Part shown: one piece after another, positions 1-43,237 of the stretch
Layout: each line of letters begins with the position of its first letter
Numbering within the stretch: the stretch's first letter is position 1
From: Candidatus Dojkabacteria bacterium
Lineage (GTDB): Bacteria > Patescibacteriota > Dojkabacteria > J137
Assembly (NCBI GenBank): GCA_025999215.1
Contig: AP024679.1
Coordinates: forward strand, 293,645-357,644
Direction: 5' to 3'
Length of the DNA stretch: 64,000 bases
Notes under the pieces: generated by a model
Database searches by the model: none
What the model was told of the DNA's origin: nothing
What the model saw: the letters and a program-made list of their open reading frames with translations, nothing else
Made by a program: the position numbers and the translations under genes

Positions 1-355
1 TTTCTTCAAGTTTCTTATTCGTTGGTAATTCATACTTTCCGGCCTTAATTTGCGGGTTTAAATTATTCAAACGAAGGTAAATTTTAAGCGCCAACGTACT
101 TTTTATAATACCTTTTTCTTCAAGGCTTGGTGCAATTGATTGTAAAGTATCTCCTTCTTTGACCTCAAAACTTATATTATTTCCCGCAATAGATGGCGCT
201 TCAAGGTTCCCTTTGTACCAATTAAAACCGATACCTGCTCCAATTAAAACTAATATTATCAAAAGTGAAATTATTGCAAAAGCAAATTTTAACTTGCTTC
301 TTTTGGCGGAAAGTTTTTGAAATTCATTTTTATTTAAGTTTACTTTTCTCTGCAT
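1..355 (-). CDS. mltG: MltG/YceG-like endolytic transglycosylase; 3' end lies beyond the window start
   Basis: Minus-strand ORF open at the window edge, ATG (revcomp) at 353-355. Translation MQRKVNLNKNEFQKLSAKRSKLKFAFAIISLLIILVLIGAG...KAGKYELP has the N-terminal TM and the YceG-like 'KAGxY' motif. yqgF-mltG adjacency matches the Firmicutes yrrK-yrrL arrangement. Confidence 0.55.
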   Translation of the reverse strand, partial: MQRKVNLNKNEFQKLSAKRSKLKFAFAIISLLIILVLIGAGIGFNWYKGNLEAPSIAGNNISFEVKEGDTLQSIAPSLEEKGIIKSTLALKIYLRLNNLNPQIKAGKYELPTNKKLEE

Positions 356-746
356 AAAAATCTAAATATTCTTGCAAAATAATTCTTGCTGCTTCAGAGT
401 CTTTGTCTCTAAGTTTAGCACCATTTTTTTGAAAAGTCTCTATGGCCATTCTAGTAGTAAGAGTTTCGTCCCACAACAGAATAGGTATAGATATGTGCAC
501 TTTTAATTTTTCAACAAACTCTTCAATTTCTTTTACAATTTTACTAGGTTTAAGCTCAATGCCTTTTGGTGTTCCAATAATCAAAAGCTCAATATTTTCC
601 TGGTTGATGATTTCTTGCAATTGAGATAGTACACTTTCGAAATTTTTATTCAAAATTGTAGTTTTGGCCCATGCAAAAGTTTTAGTTTCGTCTGATATTG
701 CAACTCCAATCCTTTTAGTACCGTAATCTAGCGCTAATATTGCCAT
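330..746 (-). CDS. yqgF: YqgF/RuvC-like putative pre-16S rRNA nuclease (Holliday junction resolvase-like)
   Basis: MAILALDYGTKRIGVAISDE... is the canonical YqgF N-terminus. Likely start is the internal Met at 746, not the track's 782. Confidence 0.8.
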   Translation of the reverse strand: MAILALDYGTKRIGVAISDETKTFAWAKTTILNKNFESVLSQLQEIINQENIELLIIGTPKGIELKPSKIVKEIEEFVEKLKVHISIPILLWDETLTTRMAIETFQKNGAKLRDKDSEAARIILQEYLDFYAEKSKLK

Positions 747-830
747 GGTAAATTTTAACAGAAATTTTGGTTTGTAGCACAATGAAAGATTAAATTTACT
801 GTGTTACAAATTGTAAATTAAGAAACGGCA

Positions 831-1526
831 GTGTTAGTAATCGATTGGCTTTTTCCAAAAAATTGTTATGGATGCTCTAAACCAGGAGAATACTTATGTA
901 ATGACTGTATTAAAAAACATTGCTCGGTTAGATGGGACCAAACTTGTCATGTTTGTAATCGAAATGTTAGCGTAGGATCGATTCATATAGAGTGTGGAGC
1001 GCAAACTTATTTAGACGGCGTTTTTTGTATGTTTGTTTATGATGGTCTCATCAAAAAAATAGTTCATGATGTTAAGTACAATTTTTATCACGATGTATTT
1101 AACGAGTTGGGGGTTAAAATGGCAAAGTTTAGTATGATTTTACCTAAATTTGAAAAATTGGTAATAACTAGTGTTCCGTTGAATCCTAAGAAAAAGAATT
1201 TTCGAGGTTTTAATCAATCTAAAATACTTGCCAAAAAAGTTGCAAAATATCAAGGTGTGGAGTACTTAGAAATTCTAAAAAGAACAAAAAATACTAAATC
1301 TCAAGTGGGCATGAGTTTGGTTGAAAGACAAACAAATTTGAAAAATGCATTCAAATTAACCTCAAAAGAAATTTTAAAAAACTTTAATAATTTAATTATT
1401 GTTGATGATGTTTATACAACAGGTTCAACTCTTAACGAGTGCGCCAAACTTATCAAAAGTCATAATCAATCAATGAATGTTTATGCTTTTACTTTGGCGA
1501 GAGCGCCAGGCGGGGTGATGGACTAA
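831..1526 (+). CDS. comFC: ComF-like competence protein with phosphoribosyltransferase domain
   Basis: N-terminal 4-Cys zinc ribbon (CYGC...CNDC...CHVC) plus PRTase motif IIVDDVYTTGSTL. Confidence 0.7.
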   Translation: MLVIDWLFPKNCYGCSKPGEYLCNDCIKKHCSVRWDQTCHVCNRNVSVGSIHIECGAQTYLDGVFCMFVYDGLIKKIVHDVKYNFYHDVFNELGVKMAKFSMILPKFEKLVITSVPLNPKKKNFRGFNQSKILAKKVAKYQGVEYLEILKRTKNTKSQVGMSLVERQTNLKNAFKLTSKEILKNFNNLIIVDDVYTTGSTLNECAKLIKSHNQSMNVYAFTLARAPGGVMD

Positions 1527-1607
1527 CTTTTGGTAAAATGTTATAATTAAATTAGAACCTTAACAAAGAACAGCATTTGCCATTTGTTCATTTTGGGTGA
1601 GCAAGTG

Positions 1608-2064
1608 GGGGATGATGTTCGACAGATGACGATTTATTTTAGTTCAAGCCGAGGTAAATGACAACCTCGTTAAATAAAGGTCATTACCTTCTTATCGAAG
1701 GAAATTGACATAAGCGTCAACAATAATGTTATCGGTGCTGTCCGAAACTTCTGGGCTTTCCTAACAGGAAAGGCAGTTGCGCCAAACTATGCTTTGGCAT
1801 AATTTCGGTACAGCGCTCTTGCTGAATAAAAAGTAGGCAAGCGTTTTCTTGTTGCTTTGACAGGTGAGCATCAAGAAAATGGTCACATAGCCTGTCTGCG
1901 TATCAAGCTCATTGGTTTGTGGTGTTTGATACTAAGAACATCAACAAACCCGGTATTTCCGTTTTGCTTGCTTTTGAGGAATTACCGTATTGAAAGCAAG
2001 CTAAGCTTGTAAATGCTAATTTAAACGTCAATCTGGACACGGATTGCTTCCGTCATCTCCACCA
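1608..2064 (+). ncRNA. ssrA: tmRNA (SsrA), one-piece form
   Basis: ORF-free, GC-richer block. 5' GGGGAUG (1608-1614) pairs with 3' CAUCUCC (2054-2060) including a G3:U70 wobble (alanine identity), followed by ACCA at 2061-2064. tRNA-like 5' UUCGACAG is present. Internal tag frame ...GCG CCA AAC TAT GCT TTG GCA TAA (ends 1801) encodes ...APNYALA*, i.e. a YALAA-type tag. Confidence 0.8.
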
Positions 2065-2161
2065 AAAGGGCCTCAGTATAAGCTGGGGCTTTTTTGTTGA
2101 GTAAAGAAAATTTTGAATTTTTTAAAAATTAATTTATAATGTCTTGTTTTAAATTCTACTT

Positions 2162-2986
2162 ATGGATATTCTAAATATTTTATTTTACGAGCCAATTTTC
2201 AATGCGGTTGTTGTACTATACAGGTTTTTTGATAACCAATTTTGGCTTGCAGTCATAGCAGTGGCTTTGCTTTCTCGTTTGATTTTATTTCCCTTTACAA
2301 TTAGACAAATTAAAATGGCTGAGTCGAGTAAAGAATTTGCAGAAAAATCAAAAGAGATAAAGAGAAAGTACAAAAATCAAAAAGAGAAACAGCAAGAAGA
2401 GCTCATGAAATTACAGTCAGAATATCTGCCAGCACAGTTAGCTGGATGCCTTCCTTTGGTTTTTCAATTGATATTTTTCATTAACTTGTACAAAGTAATC
2501 AACAATATTGTGAAGGAAAATGGCAATGCTTTTAATGATTTAGCTTATTCTTTTGTGCCGAAATTTGAACCTGGTTACCAGTTTAATCTTGATTTTTTTG
2601 GAATCAATTTGGGTGCAACCGCATCGCAGTTTAACATTGGTACCATGGAAATATTACCTTATGTTATTCTGGTAACTTTGGTTGGTCTTTCTCAGTTTTT
2701 GTCAATGAGAGTGATGATGAATTTGAGATCCACAAAAAAGAATGAAGCTGAAACCAACAAAAGATCTAACAAAAAGAATAAAAACGAAACGGAAGATTTT
2801 TCTGAAATTCTTGAGCAATCAACTAAACAAACAATGTTTTTAATGCCCGTATTATTTACTTTTTTTGCTTATAATTTACCTGCTGGGCTTAATTTGTATT
2901 GGACTGTACAGAGTACTTTTGTTATAATCCAGCAGCTTGTATTGCATTATTTTATTATGAAACCTAAGCAAAAGATTGAGGCTTAG
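2162..2986 (+). CDS. yidC: YidC/Oxa1-family membrane protein insertase (short form with Lys-rich cytoplasmic loop)
   Basis: Multi-TM 274-aa protein with YidC-like TM arrangement and a charged loop (KEFAEKSKEIKRKYKNQKEKQQEE). Assignment rests on pattern memory. Confidence 0.6.
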   Translation: MDILNILFYEPIFNAVVVLYRFFDNQFWLAVIAVALLSRLILFPFTIRQIKMAESSKEFAEKSKEIKRKYKNQKEKQQEELMKLQSEYLPAQLAGCLPLVFQLIFFINLYKVINNIVKENGNAFNDLAYSFVPKFEPGYQFNLDFFGINLGATASQFNIGTMEILPYVILVTLVGLSQFLSMRVMMNLRSTKKNEAETNKRSNKKNKNETEDFSEILEQSTKQTMFLMPVLFTFFAYNLPAGLNLYWTVQSTFVIIQQLVLHYFIMKPKQKIEA

Positions 2987-3015
2987 AATATTTTTATATT
3001 TTAATTTTAAAGAAA

Positions 3016-3681
3016 ATGAAATTAAAAGCGCAAAAGAGAACTTTGGTTGGTAAAAAGGTTAAACGATTAAGGGATCAGGGTCAGGTTCCGTCTGTAGTTT
3101 TTGGCCCCAACTTTGAATCAGTTAATATTACCATCAATGAAAAAGATTTTTTGAAAATTTTTGATCAGGTAGAGTACAATAAATTTATTGATCTTGAAAT
3201 TGAAGGAGAAGATAAACCTTTGAAAGTATTGGTTAAAGAAGTGCAGAAAGATTTTTTGAAAGATAATATCCTTACTGTTAATTTCTACAAAATTGATGAT
3301 AATAGAAAAATATCTGTTGAGGTTCCAATTAACTTGGTTGGAGAATCTCCAGCGCTAAAGATGAATCTAGGTTTTTTGGTACAGAATATGGATTCAATAT
3401 TAGTTCATTGTTACCCGAAAGATGTACCAGATCAATTTGAGGTTGATATTTCTAGCTTGGCTCAAACAGGAGATTCCGTAACTGTTCAGGTGTTAAATTT
3501 GCCTGAAGGGGTTGAGCTTGACAGCGGAATTGACCCAACAACAGCTATTGCATACATTGCTGCAAGACAGAAAGAAATAGAAGTTGCGACTACATCTGAA
3601 GAAGAAGTAGAAGGAGAAGAGACATCAGAGGCAGAAGGCGATTCACAGGAACAAGATGGTGGAAATTCTGAAACAGAGTAA
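3016..3681 (+). CDS. rplY: 50S ribosomal protein L25 / general stress protein Ctc, with acidic C-terminal tail
   Basis: MKLKAQKRTLVGKKVKRLRDQGQVPSVVFGP...; two-domain Ctc form. Confidence 0.8.
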   Translation: MKLKAQKRTLVGKKVKRLRDQGQVPSVVFGPNFESVNITINEKDFLKIFDQVEYNKFIDLEIEGEDKPLKVLVKEVQKDFLKDNILTVNFYKIDDNRKISVEVPINLVGESPALKMNLGFLVQNMDSILVHCYPKDVPDQFEVDISSLAQTGDSVTVQVLNLPEGVELDSGIDPTTAIAYIAARQKEIEVATTSEEEVEGEETSEAEGDSQEQDGGNSETE

Positions 3682-3742
3682 TTTTAATCTGAAAACTTTT
3701 TTCAAAGTTGTAAAATATCTCGGATTGTAGTGTAATGTATTT

Positions 3743-4824
3743 ATGAATAACTTGGATCCAAATCAAGAGATTAAAACTCTGTTTGAAAAAATTAACTCTA
3801 GTAAACTTCCCGCTGATCTCAAAGAAAGAGCTTTTGGGCAACTTGCGCGATTAGAAAAAATGCTTACTACTGGCGAGTATTCTCGCGATTTTGAGCCAAT
3901 TACAGAGTATCTAAACTGGATTTTGAAAATTCCTTGGGAAAATTTTGTTAAAGATAATCTTGATTTAGAAAATGTAAGAGCATCGCTTACTAAAAACCAT
4001 TATGGCTTGGAGCCGGTTAAAAACAGAATTTTAGAATACCTGGCCATAATGCACTTGCGACAAAAAAGATTGAGAAAGTCAAATGTCGGAAAATAAAGAT
4101 AAAATGGTTGCTCAAAGAAGCAGTAGCGAGAGCGCCCCGATTCTTTGTTTTGTGGGTATTCAAGGTGTGGGTAAAACATCTATGGCTAAATCTATTGCTG
4201 AGGCTTTAGGTCGGCCTTTTGTACGAATAGCGCTCGGAGGAATTAACTCTTCAACTGAGTTAAGAGGCATTTCTCGCGGAGAGGTGGGCGCTGAGCCTGG
4301 TCAAATAATTAAAGCTTTGGTTAGAACCCAAGTAATGAATCCGCTGATTTTATTTGATGAAATTGATAAAGTTAATAGTCAAACGGGTTTGCAGAGCTGA
4401 TGTGATGGCATCGCTTCTTGAAATACTTGATCCACAACAGAACGCTAGTTTTGTTGATAGGTATATTGATTACCCTGTAGATCTTTCACAGACTTTTTTT
4501 ATTACTACAGCGAATAATTTGGGAGGGATTAGTGCTGCTTTGCTTGATAGGTTAGAAATTATCAGGTTTGGTAGTTACAGTGATGAAGAAAAAATAGTAA
4601 TAGCCAAAGATTATCTACTTAAAAAAGTGATCAAAAACGCAGGGTTAAGAGAAGATCAGTTGAGGTTTGCGGATGATGTTTGGCCGCTGGTGGTGAGGCC
4701 TCTAGGTTTTGATGCCGGTGTTAGGCAGCTAGAAAGAACGCTGTCTGAGTTGGCAAGAAAGGTGGCTCTTCAAATCGTTCAGGGAGTAACTAGACGGGGT
4801 AGTAATAACCAAGGAAAATTTTAG
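3743..4824 (+). pseudogene. lon: Lon protease remnant: AAA+ module only, split over three frames, lacking the N-terminal LON domain and the C-terminal Ser-Lys protease domain
   Basis: The three track ORFs 3743-4096, 4083-4400 and 4354-4824 align consecutively to Lon: ...HYGLEPVKNRILEYLA / [35 protein letters not shown]...LFDEIDKV / ...SLLEILDPQQNASFVDRYIDYPVDLSQTFFITTANNL...LLDRLEII. Frameshifts are near 4085 and 4390. Translation ends before any protease domain. Confidence 0.75.
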
Positions 4825-4896
4825 AGATTACATACCCCAAGATTTTGGTGTTTATTCATGATTTTGTAAATATTTTGATACCTTAACGATGCTTTT

Positions 4897-5562
4897 ATGG
4901 TAAAGACTCTTCATCTAACTTATTCCAAGAAATCTAAAAAAAATATACGTAAGGTTATTGGGCTTGCTTTAATTTTTGTTATTTTATCAACATTTGTGGC
5001 TTCATTTTTATATTTAACGCTGCCTTTTTGGCCAGAAATTAAATATAGAATTTCAAAAAGCGAAATAACAGAACTCGATGTAGAAGTATCGGATGAAACA
5101 GCAGAAAAATTGGGAATAAAGAAAACAAAGAATTATAAAGAAGCACAGATTCTTGATTCAAATTTGTTGATAATTCCAAAAATTGGAGTAAAAGCAAAAA
5201 TTTTAGAACATAGTGATTTATCAATTCTTGATGTTGAAGAGGGTGTTTGGAGAGAACCTTTTACCAATACGCCTGAAGATGAAGGTGGAAACACTGTTAT
5301 AGCAGGCCATAGATTTCAGTATTTACCACCTAACACTTCTACTTTTTATCATTTAGATAAATTAAAGTCTGGTGATAAAATTTTAGTAATTTGGGATAAA
5401 AAAGAATATATTTATGAAGTGCAGGATATTTTTGAAGTGGAGCCAAGTGATACATACATTAGAGATAATTCTGGTGAATCTTTATTAACACTTTATACTT
5501 GCACTCCATTAGGAAGTGAAGCAAGGAGATTGGTTGTGCGTGCTAAATTATTAAACAATTAA
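4897..5562 (+). CDS. Sortase-family transpeptidase
   Basis: N-terminal TM anchor, catalytic His context (VIAGHR), TLYTC active-site Cys motif (TLxTC) and downstream conserved Arg. Confidence 0.75.
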   Translation: MVKTLHLTYSKKSKKNIRKVIGLALIFVILSTFVASFLYLTLPFWPEIKYRISKSEITELDVEVSDETAEKLGIKKTKNYKEAQILDSNLLIIPKIGVKAKILEHSDLSILDVEEGVWREPFTNTPEDEGGNTVIAGHRFQYLPPNTSTFYHLDKLKSGDKILVIWDKKEYIYEVQDIFEVEPSDTYIRDNSGESLLTLYTCTPLGSEARRLVVRAKLLNN

Positions 5563-5641
5563 AATTAGTTTGACAAATTTTGCTACTATTAACATAATTA
5601 ATTTGTCTATATTTAAAATTGGGTTTTAGTAAAATATTATT

Positions 5642-6856
5642 ATGTTTAAGAGAAAACAAAAAAAACAAAAGCAAGAAAGTGATTTAATGATAGCTCTTGA
5701 TATAGGAACCGAGTATGTAAAGACTGCTGTTTTCAGAAAAAATGAAAATCAAGTAGAAATTGTCGGCTTTGATAGGGCAAAACAGCAAGAGTCCTCAATG
5801 TCAGGTGCTTTTATAATTGACATTAACAATGTTGTTGATACTGTAGATAAAAGTTTAGGAAAAGCTTTTTCTGTTGCTGAGAAGTTGCTTGGAGAAAACA
5901 TTGTATTGCCAGAAAAGGCTATTTTAGGTATAGCTGGTGAGTTAATTCAGGGAGTAACTATACTTGTTAATGTTGATAGAGAAAACCCTGATAAACCTAT
6001 AGATGAAAAAGAATTAAATTCAACTATCAATAAAATAAAAAAAACATCTTTTGATAGCATCAAAGAAGAATTGGCTGAAGAATTAGGCTTGAGGCAAGCG
6101 CAAATTACTGAGATAGATACCAACATTAATAGTGTTTATATAGATGGAGTAAAGGTGATTAATCCAGTTGGTTTTACCGGAAGTGAGCTTGTTTATAGAG
6201 TTTATAGTACTTTTGCGCCAAAGGTGCATGTTGATTCCATAAAAAATGTAACTAATGAATTAGGTTTGGTAGCTGAAAAAATAATAGTGCAACCTTACGC
6301 TTTGGCTCTTGCTCATGAAGGTGCTAGAGAAAATAACTTTAGTGCAATTTTAGTGGACATTGGAGGGGGAACCACAGATGTTGCTATCGTTGAAAATGGA
6401 GATATTGTGGGTACTAGAATGTTTGCAATTGGGGGTAGAGTTTTCACGAAAAGAATTCAGAAAGAATTTGGCTGTTCTTATGATGAAGCAGAAAATTTGA
6501 AAATTTCATATACAGATGGAAAATTATCTGAGAAAAAAAAGGACCAGATAAAAGATGCCATTAGGGAAGATATTTCAACCTGGCTAACTGGTTTGGAGCT
6601 TGCTTTGGGAGATTTTGAAGATGTGAATAATTTTCCTAGTCAAATTTATTTGTGCGGGGGAGGTGCAATGTTGCCTGATATTCAAGAAGGATTGTTAGAA
6701 CATCCTTGGTTGCAAGTTTTACCGTTTCAAAAATTTCCAAACATTAATTTCTTTTTTCCAAATAAAGTTAGAAACGTGTTAGATAAAACTAGAATGGCTA
6801 ATCAAATAATGGATGTGACACCGCTAGCGCTTGCTCGCATGCATCTAAAAATTTAG
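5642..6856 (+). CDS. Actin-fold ATPase of the FtsA/PilM family
   Basis: MIALDIGTEYVKTAV... phosphate-1 motif and ILVDIGGGTTDVAIV phosphate-2/adenosine motifs. 404 aa fits FtsA better than PilM. Confidence 0.55.
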   Translation: MFKRKQKKQKQESDLMIALDIGTEYVKTAVFRKNENQVEIVGFDRAKQQESSMSGAFIIDINNVVDTVDKSLGKAFSVAEKLLGENIVLPEKAILGIAGELIQGVTILVNVDRENPDKPIDEKELNSTINKIKKTSFDSIKEELAEELGLRQAQITEIDTNINSVYIDGVKVINPVGFTGSELVYRVYSTFAPKVHVDSIKNVTNELGLVAEKIIVQPYALALAHEGARENNFSAILVDIGGGTTDVAIVENGDIVGTRMFAIGGRVFTKRIQKEFGCSYDEAENLKISYTDGKLSEKKKDQIKDAIREDISTWLTGLELALGDFEDVNNFPSQIYLCGGGAMLPDIQEGLLEHPWLQVLPFQKFPNINFFFPNKVRNVLDKTRMANQIMDVTPLALARMHLKI

Positions 6857-25183: not shown

Positions 25184-25637
25184 ATGAAAGTACTTTCAAC
25201 TAACAAACAAGCAAAACGAAATTATGAGTTTATAGAAAAGTTTGAAGCAGGAATAGTTTTAGAAGGCTGGGAGGTAAAATCAATCAAAGCAGGGTAGTGT
25301 ATCTATAGATGGTTCTTATGCTTATGTCAAAGAAAATGAAGTATTTGTTAAGAAGGTGAAAGTATATCCGTTAATGTCCGCGGGTAAAGTTCCTGAGGCT
25401 CAAACGGAACGCGATAGGAAGTTGCTACTTAAGAAAAATGAAATCAACAAAATTAAAACTTTACTGAAAAATATAGGTTATACTTTAGTTGTCAGTCAGT
25501 TGTTCCTTGCTAATTCGGGTTTTATCAAGGTTGAAGTGGTGGTTTCTAAAGGGCTCAAAAAATATGAAAAAAGAGAACGGAAAAAGGAGAAAGATTTAAA
25601 AAGAAAATTAGAAGCTGATAGAAAATATTATGGATAA
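25184..25637 (+). pseudogene. smpB: SsrA-binding protein SmpB, split by a 1-nt frameshift
   Basis: 25184-25297 encodes [40 protein letters not shown]. The +1 frame continues [66 protein letters not shown]... (track ORF 25356-25637). Both halves align to SmpB. The break is at a GGG run near 25292-25295. Confidence 0.75.
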
Positions 25638-28716: not shown

Positions 28717-28793
28717 GCTCCTGTAGCTCAGTTGGTTAGAGCACGGTTCTTATAAAGCCGGGGTCAGTGGTTCGAGTCCACTCAGGAGTACCA
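28717..28793 (+). tRNA. tRNA-Ile (anticodon UAU), CCA encoded
   Basis: Cloverleaf: acceptor GCUCCUG/CAGGAGU; anticodon stem CGGUU/AGCCG with loop CUUAUAA (UAU); T-arm AGUGG-UUCGAGU-CCACU; 3' ACCA. Confidence 0.75.
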
Positions 28794-39946: not shown

Positions 39947-40084
39947 TTTAGAATTAGAAAAAATGTCAGTAATCAGCCATCAGGCTGATGATTGATATTT
40001 TGTAACGATCTTTAACAACTGAATAGAACGACATCATGATAAAAAAGGTTTTTTTGTCATGTGGGTAATTAAAATTACCAGAAA

Positions 40085-43088
<3,004 letters not shown>

Positions 43089-43237
43089 TGGTGAGCTTTG
43101 GTATATATTTTTGCCAAGATTCCACTCTTGGTAATGTTTATATACCAATTTTACCCTTGTTCGTTCTATTCAGTTTTTAGAGATTAAGTAATTTAAAAAT
43201 TCAATCACTAGGTGCAAGATTATTTAAGTAGTTTTGC

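Follow-up and report, generated by a model that had tools for sequence, protein, structure and literature searches.

The transfer-messenger RNA (tmRNA) of Escherichia coli, SsrA, is 363 nucleotides (nt) long and encodes the tag ANDENYALAA. Ten residues is the commonest tag length (PMC11915505), and alanine is usually encoded by the resume codon, where translation starts again on the tmRNA; resume codons for Ala, Gly, Asp, Arg, Ser and Glu, not Val, are found in a survey of 2005 (PMC1168896). In E. coli this codon stands in the context UAGUC-GCA, where A86 (position −4), found almost universally, is essential and U85 has a part in the choice of frame (PMC2481249). The tmRNA T-loop has been described as highly conserved (PMC1168896), and in E. 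coli its interaction with the D-loop is needed for SmpB binding (PMC3968760). Here we analyse a tmRNA gene (ssrA) in a 64,000-nt stretch of a Candidatus Dojkabacteria genome (assembly GCA_025999215.1, contig AP024679.1, positions 293,645 to 357,644 of the forward strand; the whole stretch is called the window below).

Departures from the E. coli pattern are known. Gur and Sauer reportedly described in 2008 a Mycoplasma tmRNA with a 27-residue tag directed to Lon. The resume codon of M. pneumoniae encodes Asp. That of M. pulmonis encodes Glu (PMC1168896), and the 27-residue Mycoplasma tag is recognised by Lon in a reduced genome that has no ClpXP (Burgos et al. 2021, PMC8403727). In the mitochondrial tmRNA of Reclinomonas, which is 189 nt long and apparently has no reading frame, the UU of the T-loop is replaced by GG (PMC1168896).

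We conclude with high confidence that positions 1608–2064 of the window are the Dojkabacteria ssrA, a one-piece tmRNA with a GUC-started tag of 28 codons, ordinary pseudoknots and a reduced tRNA-like domain. The tmRNA itself is textbook. As the supplement of the 2025 tmRNA database already lists 5,275 Patescibacteria tmRNA genes from 6,765 genomes, what is new here is limited to lineage-specific traits: the long valine-initiated tag and the dismantled contact between T-loop and D-loop.

Identification of the tmRNA gene and its family

The covariance model of Rfam family RF00023 matches 1608–2064 on the plus strand with 85.1 bits (gathering score 47; E-value 1.4e-31) over its full length (model positions 1–374 of 374). 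Boundaries and strand are identical to those of the original prediction, which had proposed a one-piece tmRNA here from the letters of the sequence. Inside 1608–2064, RF00023 is the one Rfam family with a match at or above its gathering score, and in 1500–2200 the sole other Rfam matches are two sub-threshold small RNA matches near the terminator (E-values 0.09 and 0.2). The surroundings are as had been described: the segment is richer in GC (∼41%) than its flanks (∼30%) and lies between genes for a ComFC-like phosphoribosyltransferase (831–1526) and YidC (2162–2986). It is free of open reading frames (ORFs), as had also been said, in a loose sense only, for mechanical ORFs of 41–51 codons overlap it.

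The YidC of the window is KatS3mg085_292 in NCBI, from a metagenome-assembled genome (MAG) of Candidatus Dojkabacteria within the Candidate Phyla Radiation (CPR, or Patescibacteria). An identical YidC is present in a sister MAG (GCA_026004355.1, locus L001) and in the Logan assembly of run DRR290133 (locus L002), the source being a hot-spring community. L002 is an independent assembly with 100% identity to the window over 644–3332, tmRNA included; the tmRNA sequence has thus been reproduced and is reliable. The sister MAG keeps the gene order comFC-ssrA-yidC. Compared with that of the window, its tmRNA (2445–2903 of L001) has a single substitution and 2 extra nucleotides (TA). These two changes fall 3′ of the stop codon and 5′ of the helix-5 hairpin, in the 3′ strand of a candidate long-range helix, and leave the tag frame as it is.

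A YidC profile search retrieved 80 loci from species-representative genomes. With a hidden Markov model (HMM) of the family, a full-length tmRNA of 424–464 nt was found directly 5′ of yidC in 23 related genomes, that is, in all of loci L003–L026, which share the order ssrA-yidC, except L017, left out because a contig end cuts its tmRNA. In loci L027–L082, from other CPR classes, the family HMM found no tmRNA near yidC. The window tmRNA and the 23 Dojkabacteria homologues were aligned by sequence only with MAFFT (alignment A2, 24 sequences), and the family counts given below refer to this set.

The tag reading frame

The frame GCG CCA AAC UAU GCU UUG GCA UAA, which the original prediction had presented as the tag frame ending at 1801, is present in the window, with the difference that its UAA occupies 1800–1802. 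The tag read from it, APNYALA, proves to be the C-terminus of a longer one: the 7-residue start at GCG 1779 is displaced by a GUC at 1716–1718, from which 28 sense codons, VNNNVIGAVRNFWAFLTGKAVAPNYALA, lead to the same UAA. In the alignment to the Rfam model the consensus of the tag start, AAUAAuU GCa AAC, falls on CAUAAGC GUC AAC, which makes GUC 1716–1718 the resume codon of the model, and this codon is in frame with ...APNYALA and the stop.

The context is shared by the whole family in the form UAA(A/G)C followed by GUC AAY. A at −4 and A at −3 are invariant (24/24 each), C at −1 occurs in 22 sequences and U at −5 in 19. GUC as the resume codon and AAY as the second codon are each found in 22 of the 24. 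Departures from the GUC resume codon were seen in L023 (2290–2726), with AAC (perhaps Asn), L022 (2512–2935), with GAC (Asp), and L020 (1218–1666), with GUA ACU; all three keep A at −4 despite the changed resume codon.

From GUC the frame remains open for 25–32 codons (eight lengths, mode 28) and closes, mostly with UAA, shortly 5′ of the helix-5 hairpin. Over the tag span the 24 sequences have no stop in this frame versus 57 and 53 in the other two, both of which are closed in every member. The variation is that of coding sequence: the mean pairwise difference at codon positions 1, 2 and 3 is 0.46, 0.44 and 0.63 (0.46, 0.45 and 0.62 in the part N-terminal of APNYALA), and in 26 of 29 codon columns the highest variation is at position 3 (Wilcoxon p = 4e-7). 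No three-base periodicity was found in pseudoknots (PK) 2, 3 and 4. Close pairs in the family differ mainly by synonymous changes; L015 and L016, for example, have 3, 5 and 12 nt differences at codon positions 1, 2 and 3, with 8 synonymous versus 6 non-synonymous codon changes. The insertions and deletions N-terminal of the APNYALA part are all multiples of three.

The encoded peptides share the motif VN...NAV.NV..AF (examples of family tags are VNQIKNTFSNAVANVKAAFAPSYALAFA and VNNTFTNVANAVRNFFVPQVQLNFAA). Ala, Asn, Val and Phe are frequent in them and acidic residues nearly absent, and their N-terminal 14–18 residues have the periodicity of an amphipathic helix, stronger than the mean of shuffled sequences in all 24 members (mean z 1.9). 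The comparative evidence supports the conclusion that translation would resume at GUC 1716–1718, with the frame set by UAAGC, and would add (Ala)-VNNNVIGAVRNFWAFLTGKAVAPNYALA before ending at UAA 1800–1802.

Other limits of the frame were considered as well. A resume codon further 5′ would be allowed by the window sequence, in which no stop interrupts the frame as far back as tmRNA position 67; it was rejected, since relatives have in-frame stops two to six codons 5′ of GUC and the A−4 rule fits GUC alone. The helix-5 loop might also carry a backup or ancestral stop, a second in-frame UAA being found in the window at 1827–1829; this too was rejected, as a stop triplet in the loop is in frame in only 3 of 19 family members.

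A reduced tRNA-like domain

The tRNA-like element that had been noted from the sequence is there in its acceptor and T stems and is reduced elsewhere. The 7-bp acceptor stem with the G3.U alanine determinant stands as predicted: its seven pairs are kept in all 24 members and the G.U is invariant. The T stem is likewise 100% paired in the family, with exchanges among GC, CG and UA pairs. The T-loop, which has 5 nt in the window, is 3–5 nt long in 22 of the 24 members, often of GNRA or UUCG type; outside those types are UUCAAU, kept in L007, and a 5-nt loop of another kind in the remaining member. On the 5′ side, the spacer between acceptor stem and UUCGAC is 3–5 nt in every member and lacks the consensus GG. 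The canonical 7-nt T-psi-C loop with its contact to the D-loop GG is therefore absent from the window tmRNA. The six tRNAs of the window keep GTTCGANT T-loops and the D-loop GG, so the reduction is specific to the tmRNA.

In the literature on tmRNA in Dojkabacteria, CPR or Patescibacteria we found neither the T-loop reduction nor the missing D-loop GG nor the long valine tag, and the lineage is not named in the text of the tmRNA database paper; the curators of the Patescibacteria tmRNAs may have met the reduced T-loop.

A broader proposal would be that all Dojkabacteria carry out trans-translation with a tmRNA whose elbow is dismantled (a tetraloop-like cap and no GG). As the elbow contact is held to be required in E. 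coli, SmpB and the ribosome would on this proposal recognise the tmRNA differently, and the conserved amphipathic tag with its valine start would form a distinct class of degron (for Lon, FtsH or some other fate) and not a ClpXP variant. We put it forward as tentative, and the balance at present tips against it. The family is a natural experiment, both on the parts of the tRNA-like domain that are truly needed, as the contact between T-loop and D-loop is gone and the acceptor and T stems are kept, and on the role of a long tag in a reduced genome.

Overall fold and the origin of the extra length

RNAalifold, run on the 24 sequences, recovers the acceptor stem, the inner part of helix 2 (H2), PK1 stem 1, one stem each of PK2 and PK4 and the T stem, with compensatory changes at 25 of 36 pairs. 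When the full structure with four pseudoknots is written out for the window, every helix is complementary except for one U.U. On the family alignment this structure is 69.6% paired versus 40–57% with the partners slid; its covariation score is 0.336 versus 0.12–0.26 for slid partners, and none of 500 shuffles reaches 0.336.

In the family, the acceptor stem, inner H2, PK2 stem 2, PK3 stem 2 and the T stem are strongly supported. The inner 5 bp of H2 (CAAGC/GCUUG) are 100% paired with compensatory changes, its outer part 65%. Stem 1 of PK1 shows compensatory changes in RNAalifold, and stem 2 is complementary in the window, in a region where the family alignment is poor. In PK2, pairing reaches 93% in stem 2, where 6 of 7 pairs show compensatory changes, and 66% in stem 1; the PK3 stems are 60% and 74% paired, with changes on both sides at every pair, and PK4 stem 2 is 68% paired.

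Extra pseudoknot insertions, to which the unusual length had been attributed, are not seen: all four pseudoknots are of ordinary size, and in the Rfam alignment the excess lies between PK1 and helix 5 (H5). It consists of a 79-nt insertion before H5, formed by the long reading frame, and of one of 25 nt, which holds the 3′ strand of PK1 and a 15-nt hairpin. The 457-nt length is thus due to the 84-nt coding frame and to the hairpin after PK1. The latter has an equivalent in 17 of the 24 members and is absent in seven; its stems vary (UAGCC/GGCUA versus UAGUC/GACUA), and its caps are often GNRA or UUCG. That the 79-nt insert could be structured and non-coding was considered and rejected in favour of coding sequence on the grounds of the open frame, the third-position variation and the family tags.

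The mRNA-like domain has a candidate long-range helix between the tag codons and the nucleotides directly 3′ of the stop. The 15 nt after the stop pair best with ORF nucleotides ∼12–34 (codons 5–11) in 16 of the 24 sequences versus 21.6% of shuffles (binomial p 3e-6, a value that ignores the relatedness of the sequences); the strand sequences differ between lineages. Further 3′, the motif (C)GAAnAAAAAGUAG is conserved in the H5 loop (alignment A2 columns ∼268–292).

Table 1. Coordinates of the tmRNA elements, putative expression signals and smpB in the window
Feature	Position	Strand	Basis
Promoter-like site TGGACT, 17-nt spacer, TATAAT, with TG before the −10 (extended −10)	1519–1547	+	Consensus scan, 10/12 matches, pattern only
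Mature one-piece tmRNA (ssrA), 457 nt	1608–2064	+	RF00023; ARAGORN at 80% threshold; homologues 5′ of yidC
Acceptor stem, 5′ strand GGGGAUG, G3 of G3.U at 1610	1608–1614	+	Pairs with 2054–2060
Reduced D-loop analogue AUG-UUCGAC (UUCGAC 1618–1623), without Rfam ‘cuGG’	1615–1623	+	4-nt deletion vs model positions 10–13
Helix 2, 5′ strand, pairs with 2005–2035	1623–1649	+	Complementarity in window; family alignment
Pseudoknot 1 (stem 1 1650–1654/1665–1669; stem 2 1655–1662/1680–1686)	1650–1686	+	RNAalifold (stem 1); complementarity
Extra hairpin CCUUC-UUAUC-GAAGG, between PK1 and resume context	1687–1701	+	Local folding; family comparison
Frame-setting context UAAGC (−5 to −1)	1711–1715	+	Family conservation; counterpart of E. 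coli U85/A86
Predicted tag frame, GUC (Val) 1716–1718, 28 sense codons, UAA 1800–1802	1716–1802	+	Rfam alignment; family comparison
Candidate long-range helix, 14 bp, −20.4 kcal/mol	1734–1747 (codons 7–11) with 1803–1817, directly 3′ of stop	+	Folding
Hairpin aligned to helix 5, stem CUUGC/GCAAG, A-rich loop UGAAUAAAAAGUAG, 3′ of stop codon	1818–1841	+	Covariance model alignment
Pseudoknot 2	1844–1896	+	RNAalifold; complementarity; family pairing
Pseudoknot 3	1900–1950	+	Both stems complementary in window
Pseudoknot 4	1952–2001	+	RNAalifold (stem 1); window pairs
T arm, 5-bp ACGGA/UCCGU, 5-nt loop UUGCU (model loop 7 nt)	2039–2053	+	Family covariation
Acceptor stem, 3′ strand CAUCUCC 2054–2060 and ACCA 2061–2064	2054–2064	+	Invariant in 24/24
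Terminator-like hairpin followed by U run	2063–2096	+	RNAfold, −20.9 kcal/mol
smpB, obligatory protein partner of tmRNA, frameshifted in the assembly	25184–25637	+	tblastn; ORF listing

Alternative explanations

The tag could be shorter than we propose. In that case the tmRNA would resume at GCG 1779 and encode APNYALA, and 1716–1778 would be an untranslated structured insert between PK1 and the tag. ARAGORN, at a threshold of 80%, chooses this very codon, whose upstream sequence GGCAGUU has A at −4. Resumption would then be on alanine, the usual residue (PMC1168896), the tag would compare with a commonest length of ten residues (PMC11915505), and the region is able to form a 14-bp helix and hairpins. 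However, GGCAGUU-GCG is not conserved in the family, whereas UAA(A/G)C-GUC AAY is nearly invariant and the Rfam model also has its resume codon on GUC. The stretch 5′ of 1779 moreover behaves as codons in all 24 members, with the open frame, the most variable third position, the triplet insertions and deletions and the shared peptide motif described above. We consider the short tag improbable and retain the GUC start. Even less room is left for an account of the excess length by an intervening sequence (a group I intron or mobile insertion), a permuted two-piece gene or additional pseudoknots. The 457 nt do exceed the typical ∼350 nt and the 425-nt maximum of the 2005 survey (PMC1168896), and introns are known in tmRNA T-loops (PMC11915505). 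Yet the Rfam search at gathering scores found no second family inside 1608–2064, the T-loop is uninterrupted and shorter than normal, the 5′ and 3′ tRNA-like halves are in standard order, and PK2–PK4 align without large insertions, all surplus nucleotides being those of the coding frame and the 15-nt hairpin. The element-by-element map has already refuted these explanations.

A tmRNA gene in decay, with trans-translation being lost from a reduced genome, would account for other features: a frameshift divides smpB in the deposited assembly, three frameshifts distinguish a nearby Lon-like gene from its counterpart in the sister MAG, the canonical T-loop and the D-loop GG are gone, and the ARAGORN score is below threshold. 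Against this, the acceptor stem, ACCA, resume context, open 28-codon frame and all helices are intact in the window. The reduced T-loop is common to 22 of 24 members, in which the stems co-vary and the tags evolve under coding selection, and it is thus a stable family trait and not decay. The SmpB proteins of the family are intact at ∼150 residues, and the break in the smpB of the window, where a GGG run has one G too many, could come from an assembly indel. Decay is in our judgement very unlikely, and a conserved ssrA with a long tag is the preferred reading.

Several observations nevertheless weigh against that reading. The interaction between T-loop and D-loop cannot form in this tmRNA, whose function is argued from conservation. 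In its middle part (WAFLTGKAV) the window tag diverges more than any other of the family. The statistics overstate the independence of the 24 sequences, which are related. Covariation, which had been suggested as a check of the four pseudoknots, bears out the structure as a whole over slid and shuffled controls and is weak for PK1 stem 2 and PK4 stem 1; these two and the extra hairpin are 42–52% paired, at places where the sequence-only MAFFT alignment is visibly out of register. With default settings ARAGORN misses the window gene. Given the smpB frameshift, a working rescue system in the window genome is putative, and the assignment of a protease to the tag is pure analogy.

Detection and annotation

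The outcome of the ARAGORN search, which the original prediction had suggested as a check, depended on its settings: nothing was reported at default, and at 80% of the threshold the gene was recovered with identical ends and with APNYALA as its tag. The default search detected none of 26 full-length Dojkabacteria tmRNA copies (window and related loci). RF00023 reached its threshold in 17 of the first 20 loci examined; L005 and L014 carry full-length tmRNA genes below its threshold, and several others are within 3 bits of it. The Dojkabacteria tmRNAs therefore sit at the margin of standard detection. That the window tmRNA is unannotated, as had been stated, is plausible, because ARAGORN-based pipelines miss the gene. 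Pipelines that depend on this program will report Dojkabacteria genomes as lacking tmRNA, and relaxed settings find the gene but mis-call the tag in the window genome.

Putative expression signals and proposed mechanism

In line with established tmRNA biology, the gene would be transcribed from the extended −10 promoter, with termination at the hairpin that follows it; a stricter terminator scan did not list the hairpin at 2063–2096. The promoter-like site would imply a 5′ leader of ∼50–55 nt, for removal by RNase P. The ends would be trimmed to GGGG...ACCA, alanyl-tRNA synthetase would charge the RNA with alanine by way of G3.U, and SmpB and EF-Tu would deliver it to stalled ribosomes. Translation would then resume on the tag frame as proposed above from its sequence. 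By analogy with the 27-residue Lon-directed tag of Mycoplasma, the hydrophobic ...YALA end and the long amphipathic N-terminal part, rich in Asn, Ala, Val and Phe, may act as a degradation signal, and determinants for a protease other than ClpXP may lie in the long part.

The smpB gene and other features of the window

In the smpB of the window a 37-codon N-terminal ORF ends at 25297 and the remainder is in the +1 frame, with an extra G in the GGG run at ∼25292–25294. Removal of one G gives a SmpB of 150 residues with 63% identity to the closest intact homologue. The NCBI annotation has an 87-residue fragment only (KatS3mg085_319, on the 862-kb contig). No independent assembly covering the smpB region was found on record.

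A Lon-like AAA+ gene (3743–4858, plus strand) lies 1.7 kb 3′ of the tmRNA; it has AAA and Lon_lid domains, and no protease domain was detected in it. In L001 the gene (4582–5697) is intact with 371 codons; compared with it, the window copy has an extra base at each of 4068, 4393 and 4793 and is spread over three frames as a result. Of 79 mismatches between the window and L001, 77 are in 3001–5000 and 2 in 1–3000. The frameshifts in smpB and in the Lon-like gene may be either assembly indels or real lesions.

Elsewhere in the window, a tRNA-Ile with the anticodon encoded as TAT (UAU) is found at 28717–28793 (plus strand), and a tRNA-Ile(GAT) is also present in the rRNA operon. The 23S rRNA (40079–43092, plus strand) has sizeable insertions relative to the bacterial model (around 40365 and at 40430–40480), e.g. 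65 nt in place of 3 nt of the model.

Comparison with known tmRNAs

The Dojkabacteria tmRNA has the parts of a standard one-piece tmRNA (RF00023): the 7-bp acceptor stem with G3.U, ACCA, the T stem and a long helix 2, followed by PK1, a single-stranded A-rich linker with U−5 and A−4, a resume codon and a tag ending in ...YALA, then helix 5 and PK2–PK4, with smpB, frameshifted in the assembly, elsewhere in the genome. It differs from the E. coli tmRNA in a resume codon GUC (Val) instead of GCN (Ala) and in a tag of 28 residues instead of 10. Unlike in the standard tmRNA, the stop codon is placed before and not inside the helix-5 hairpin and an extra hairpin follows PK1; the window tmRNA, at 457 nt in total, has a T-loop of 5 nt instead of 7 and no D-loop GG.

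The closest functional analogue of the long Dojkabacteria tag is probably the 27-residue tag of Mycoplasma. Both belong to small reduced genomes, both are long (25–32 residues in Dojkabacteria), both start from a resume codon other than alanine, and both have a hydrophobic end, ...FA or ...LA. They have, however, no similarity in tag sequence, the long part in Dojkabacteria being rich in Asn, Ala, Val and Phe, amphipathic and almost without acidic residues. In its departure from the conserved T-loop, the Dojkabacteria tmRNA resembles the mitochondrial tmRNAs of jakobids; unlike those tiny molecules, it keeps the whole ring of pseudoknots together with a long tag frame and has lost no more than the elbow contacts.

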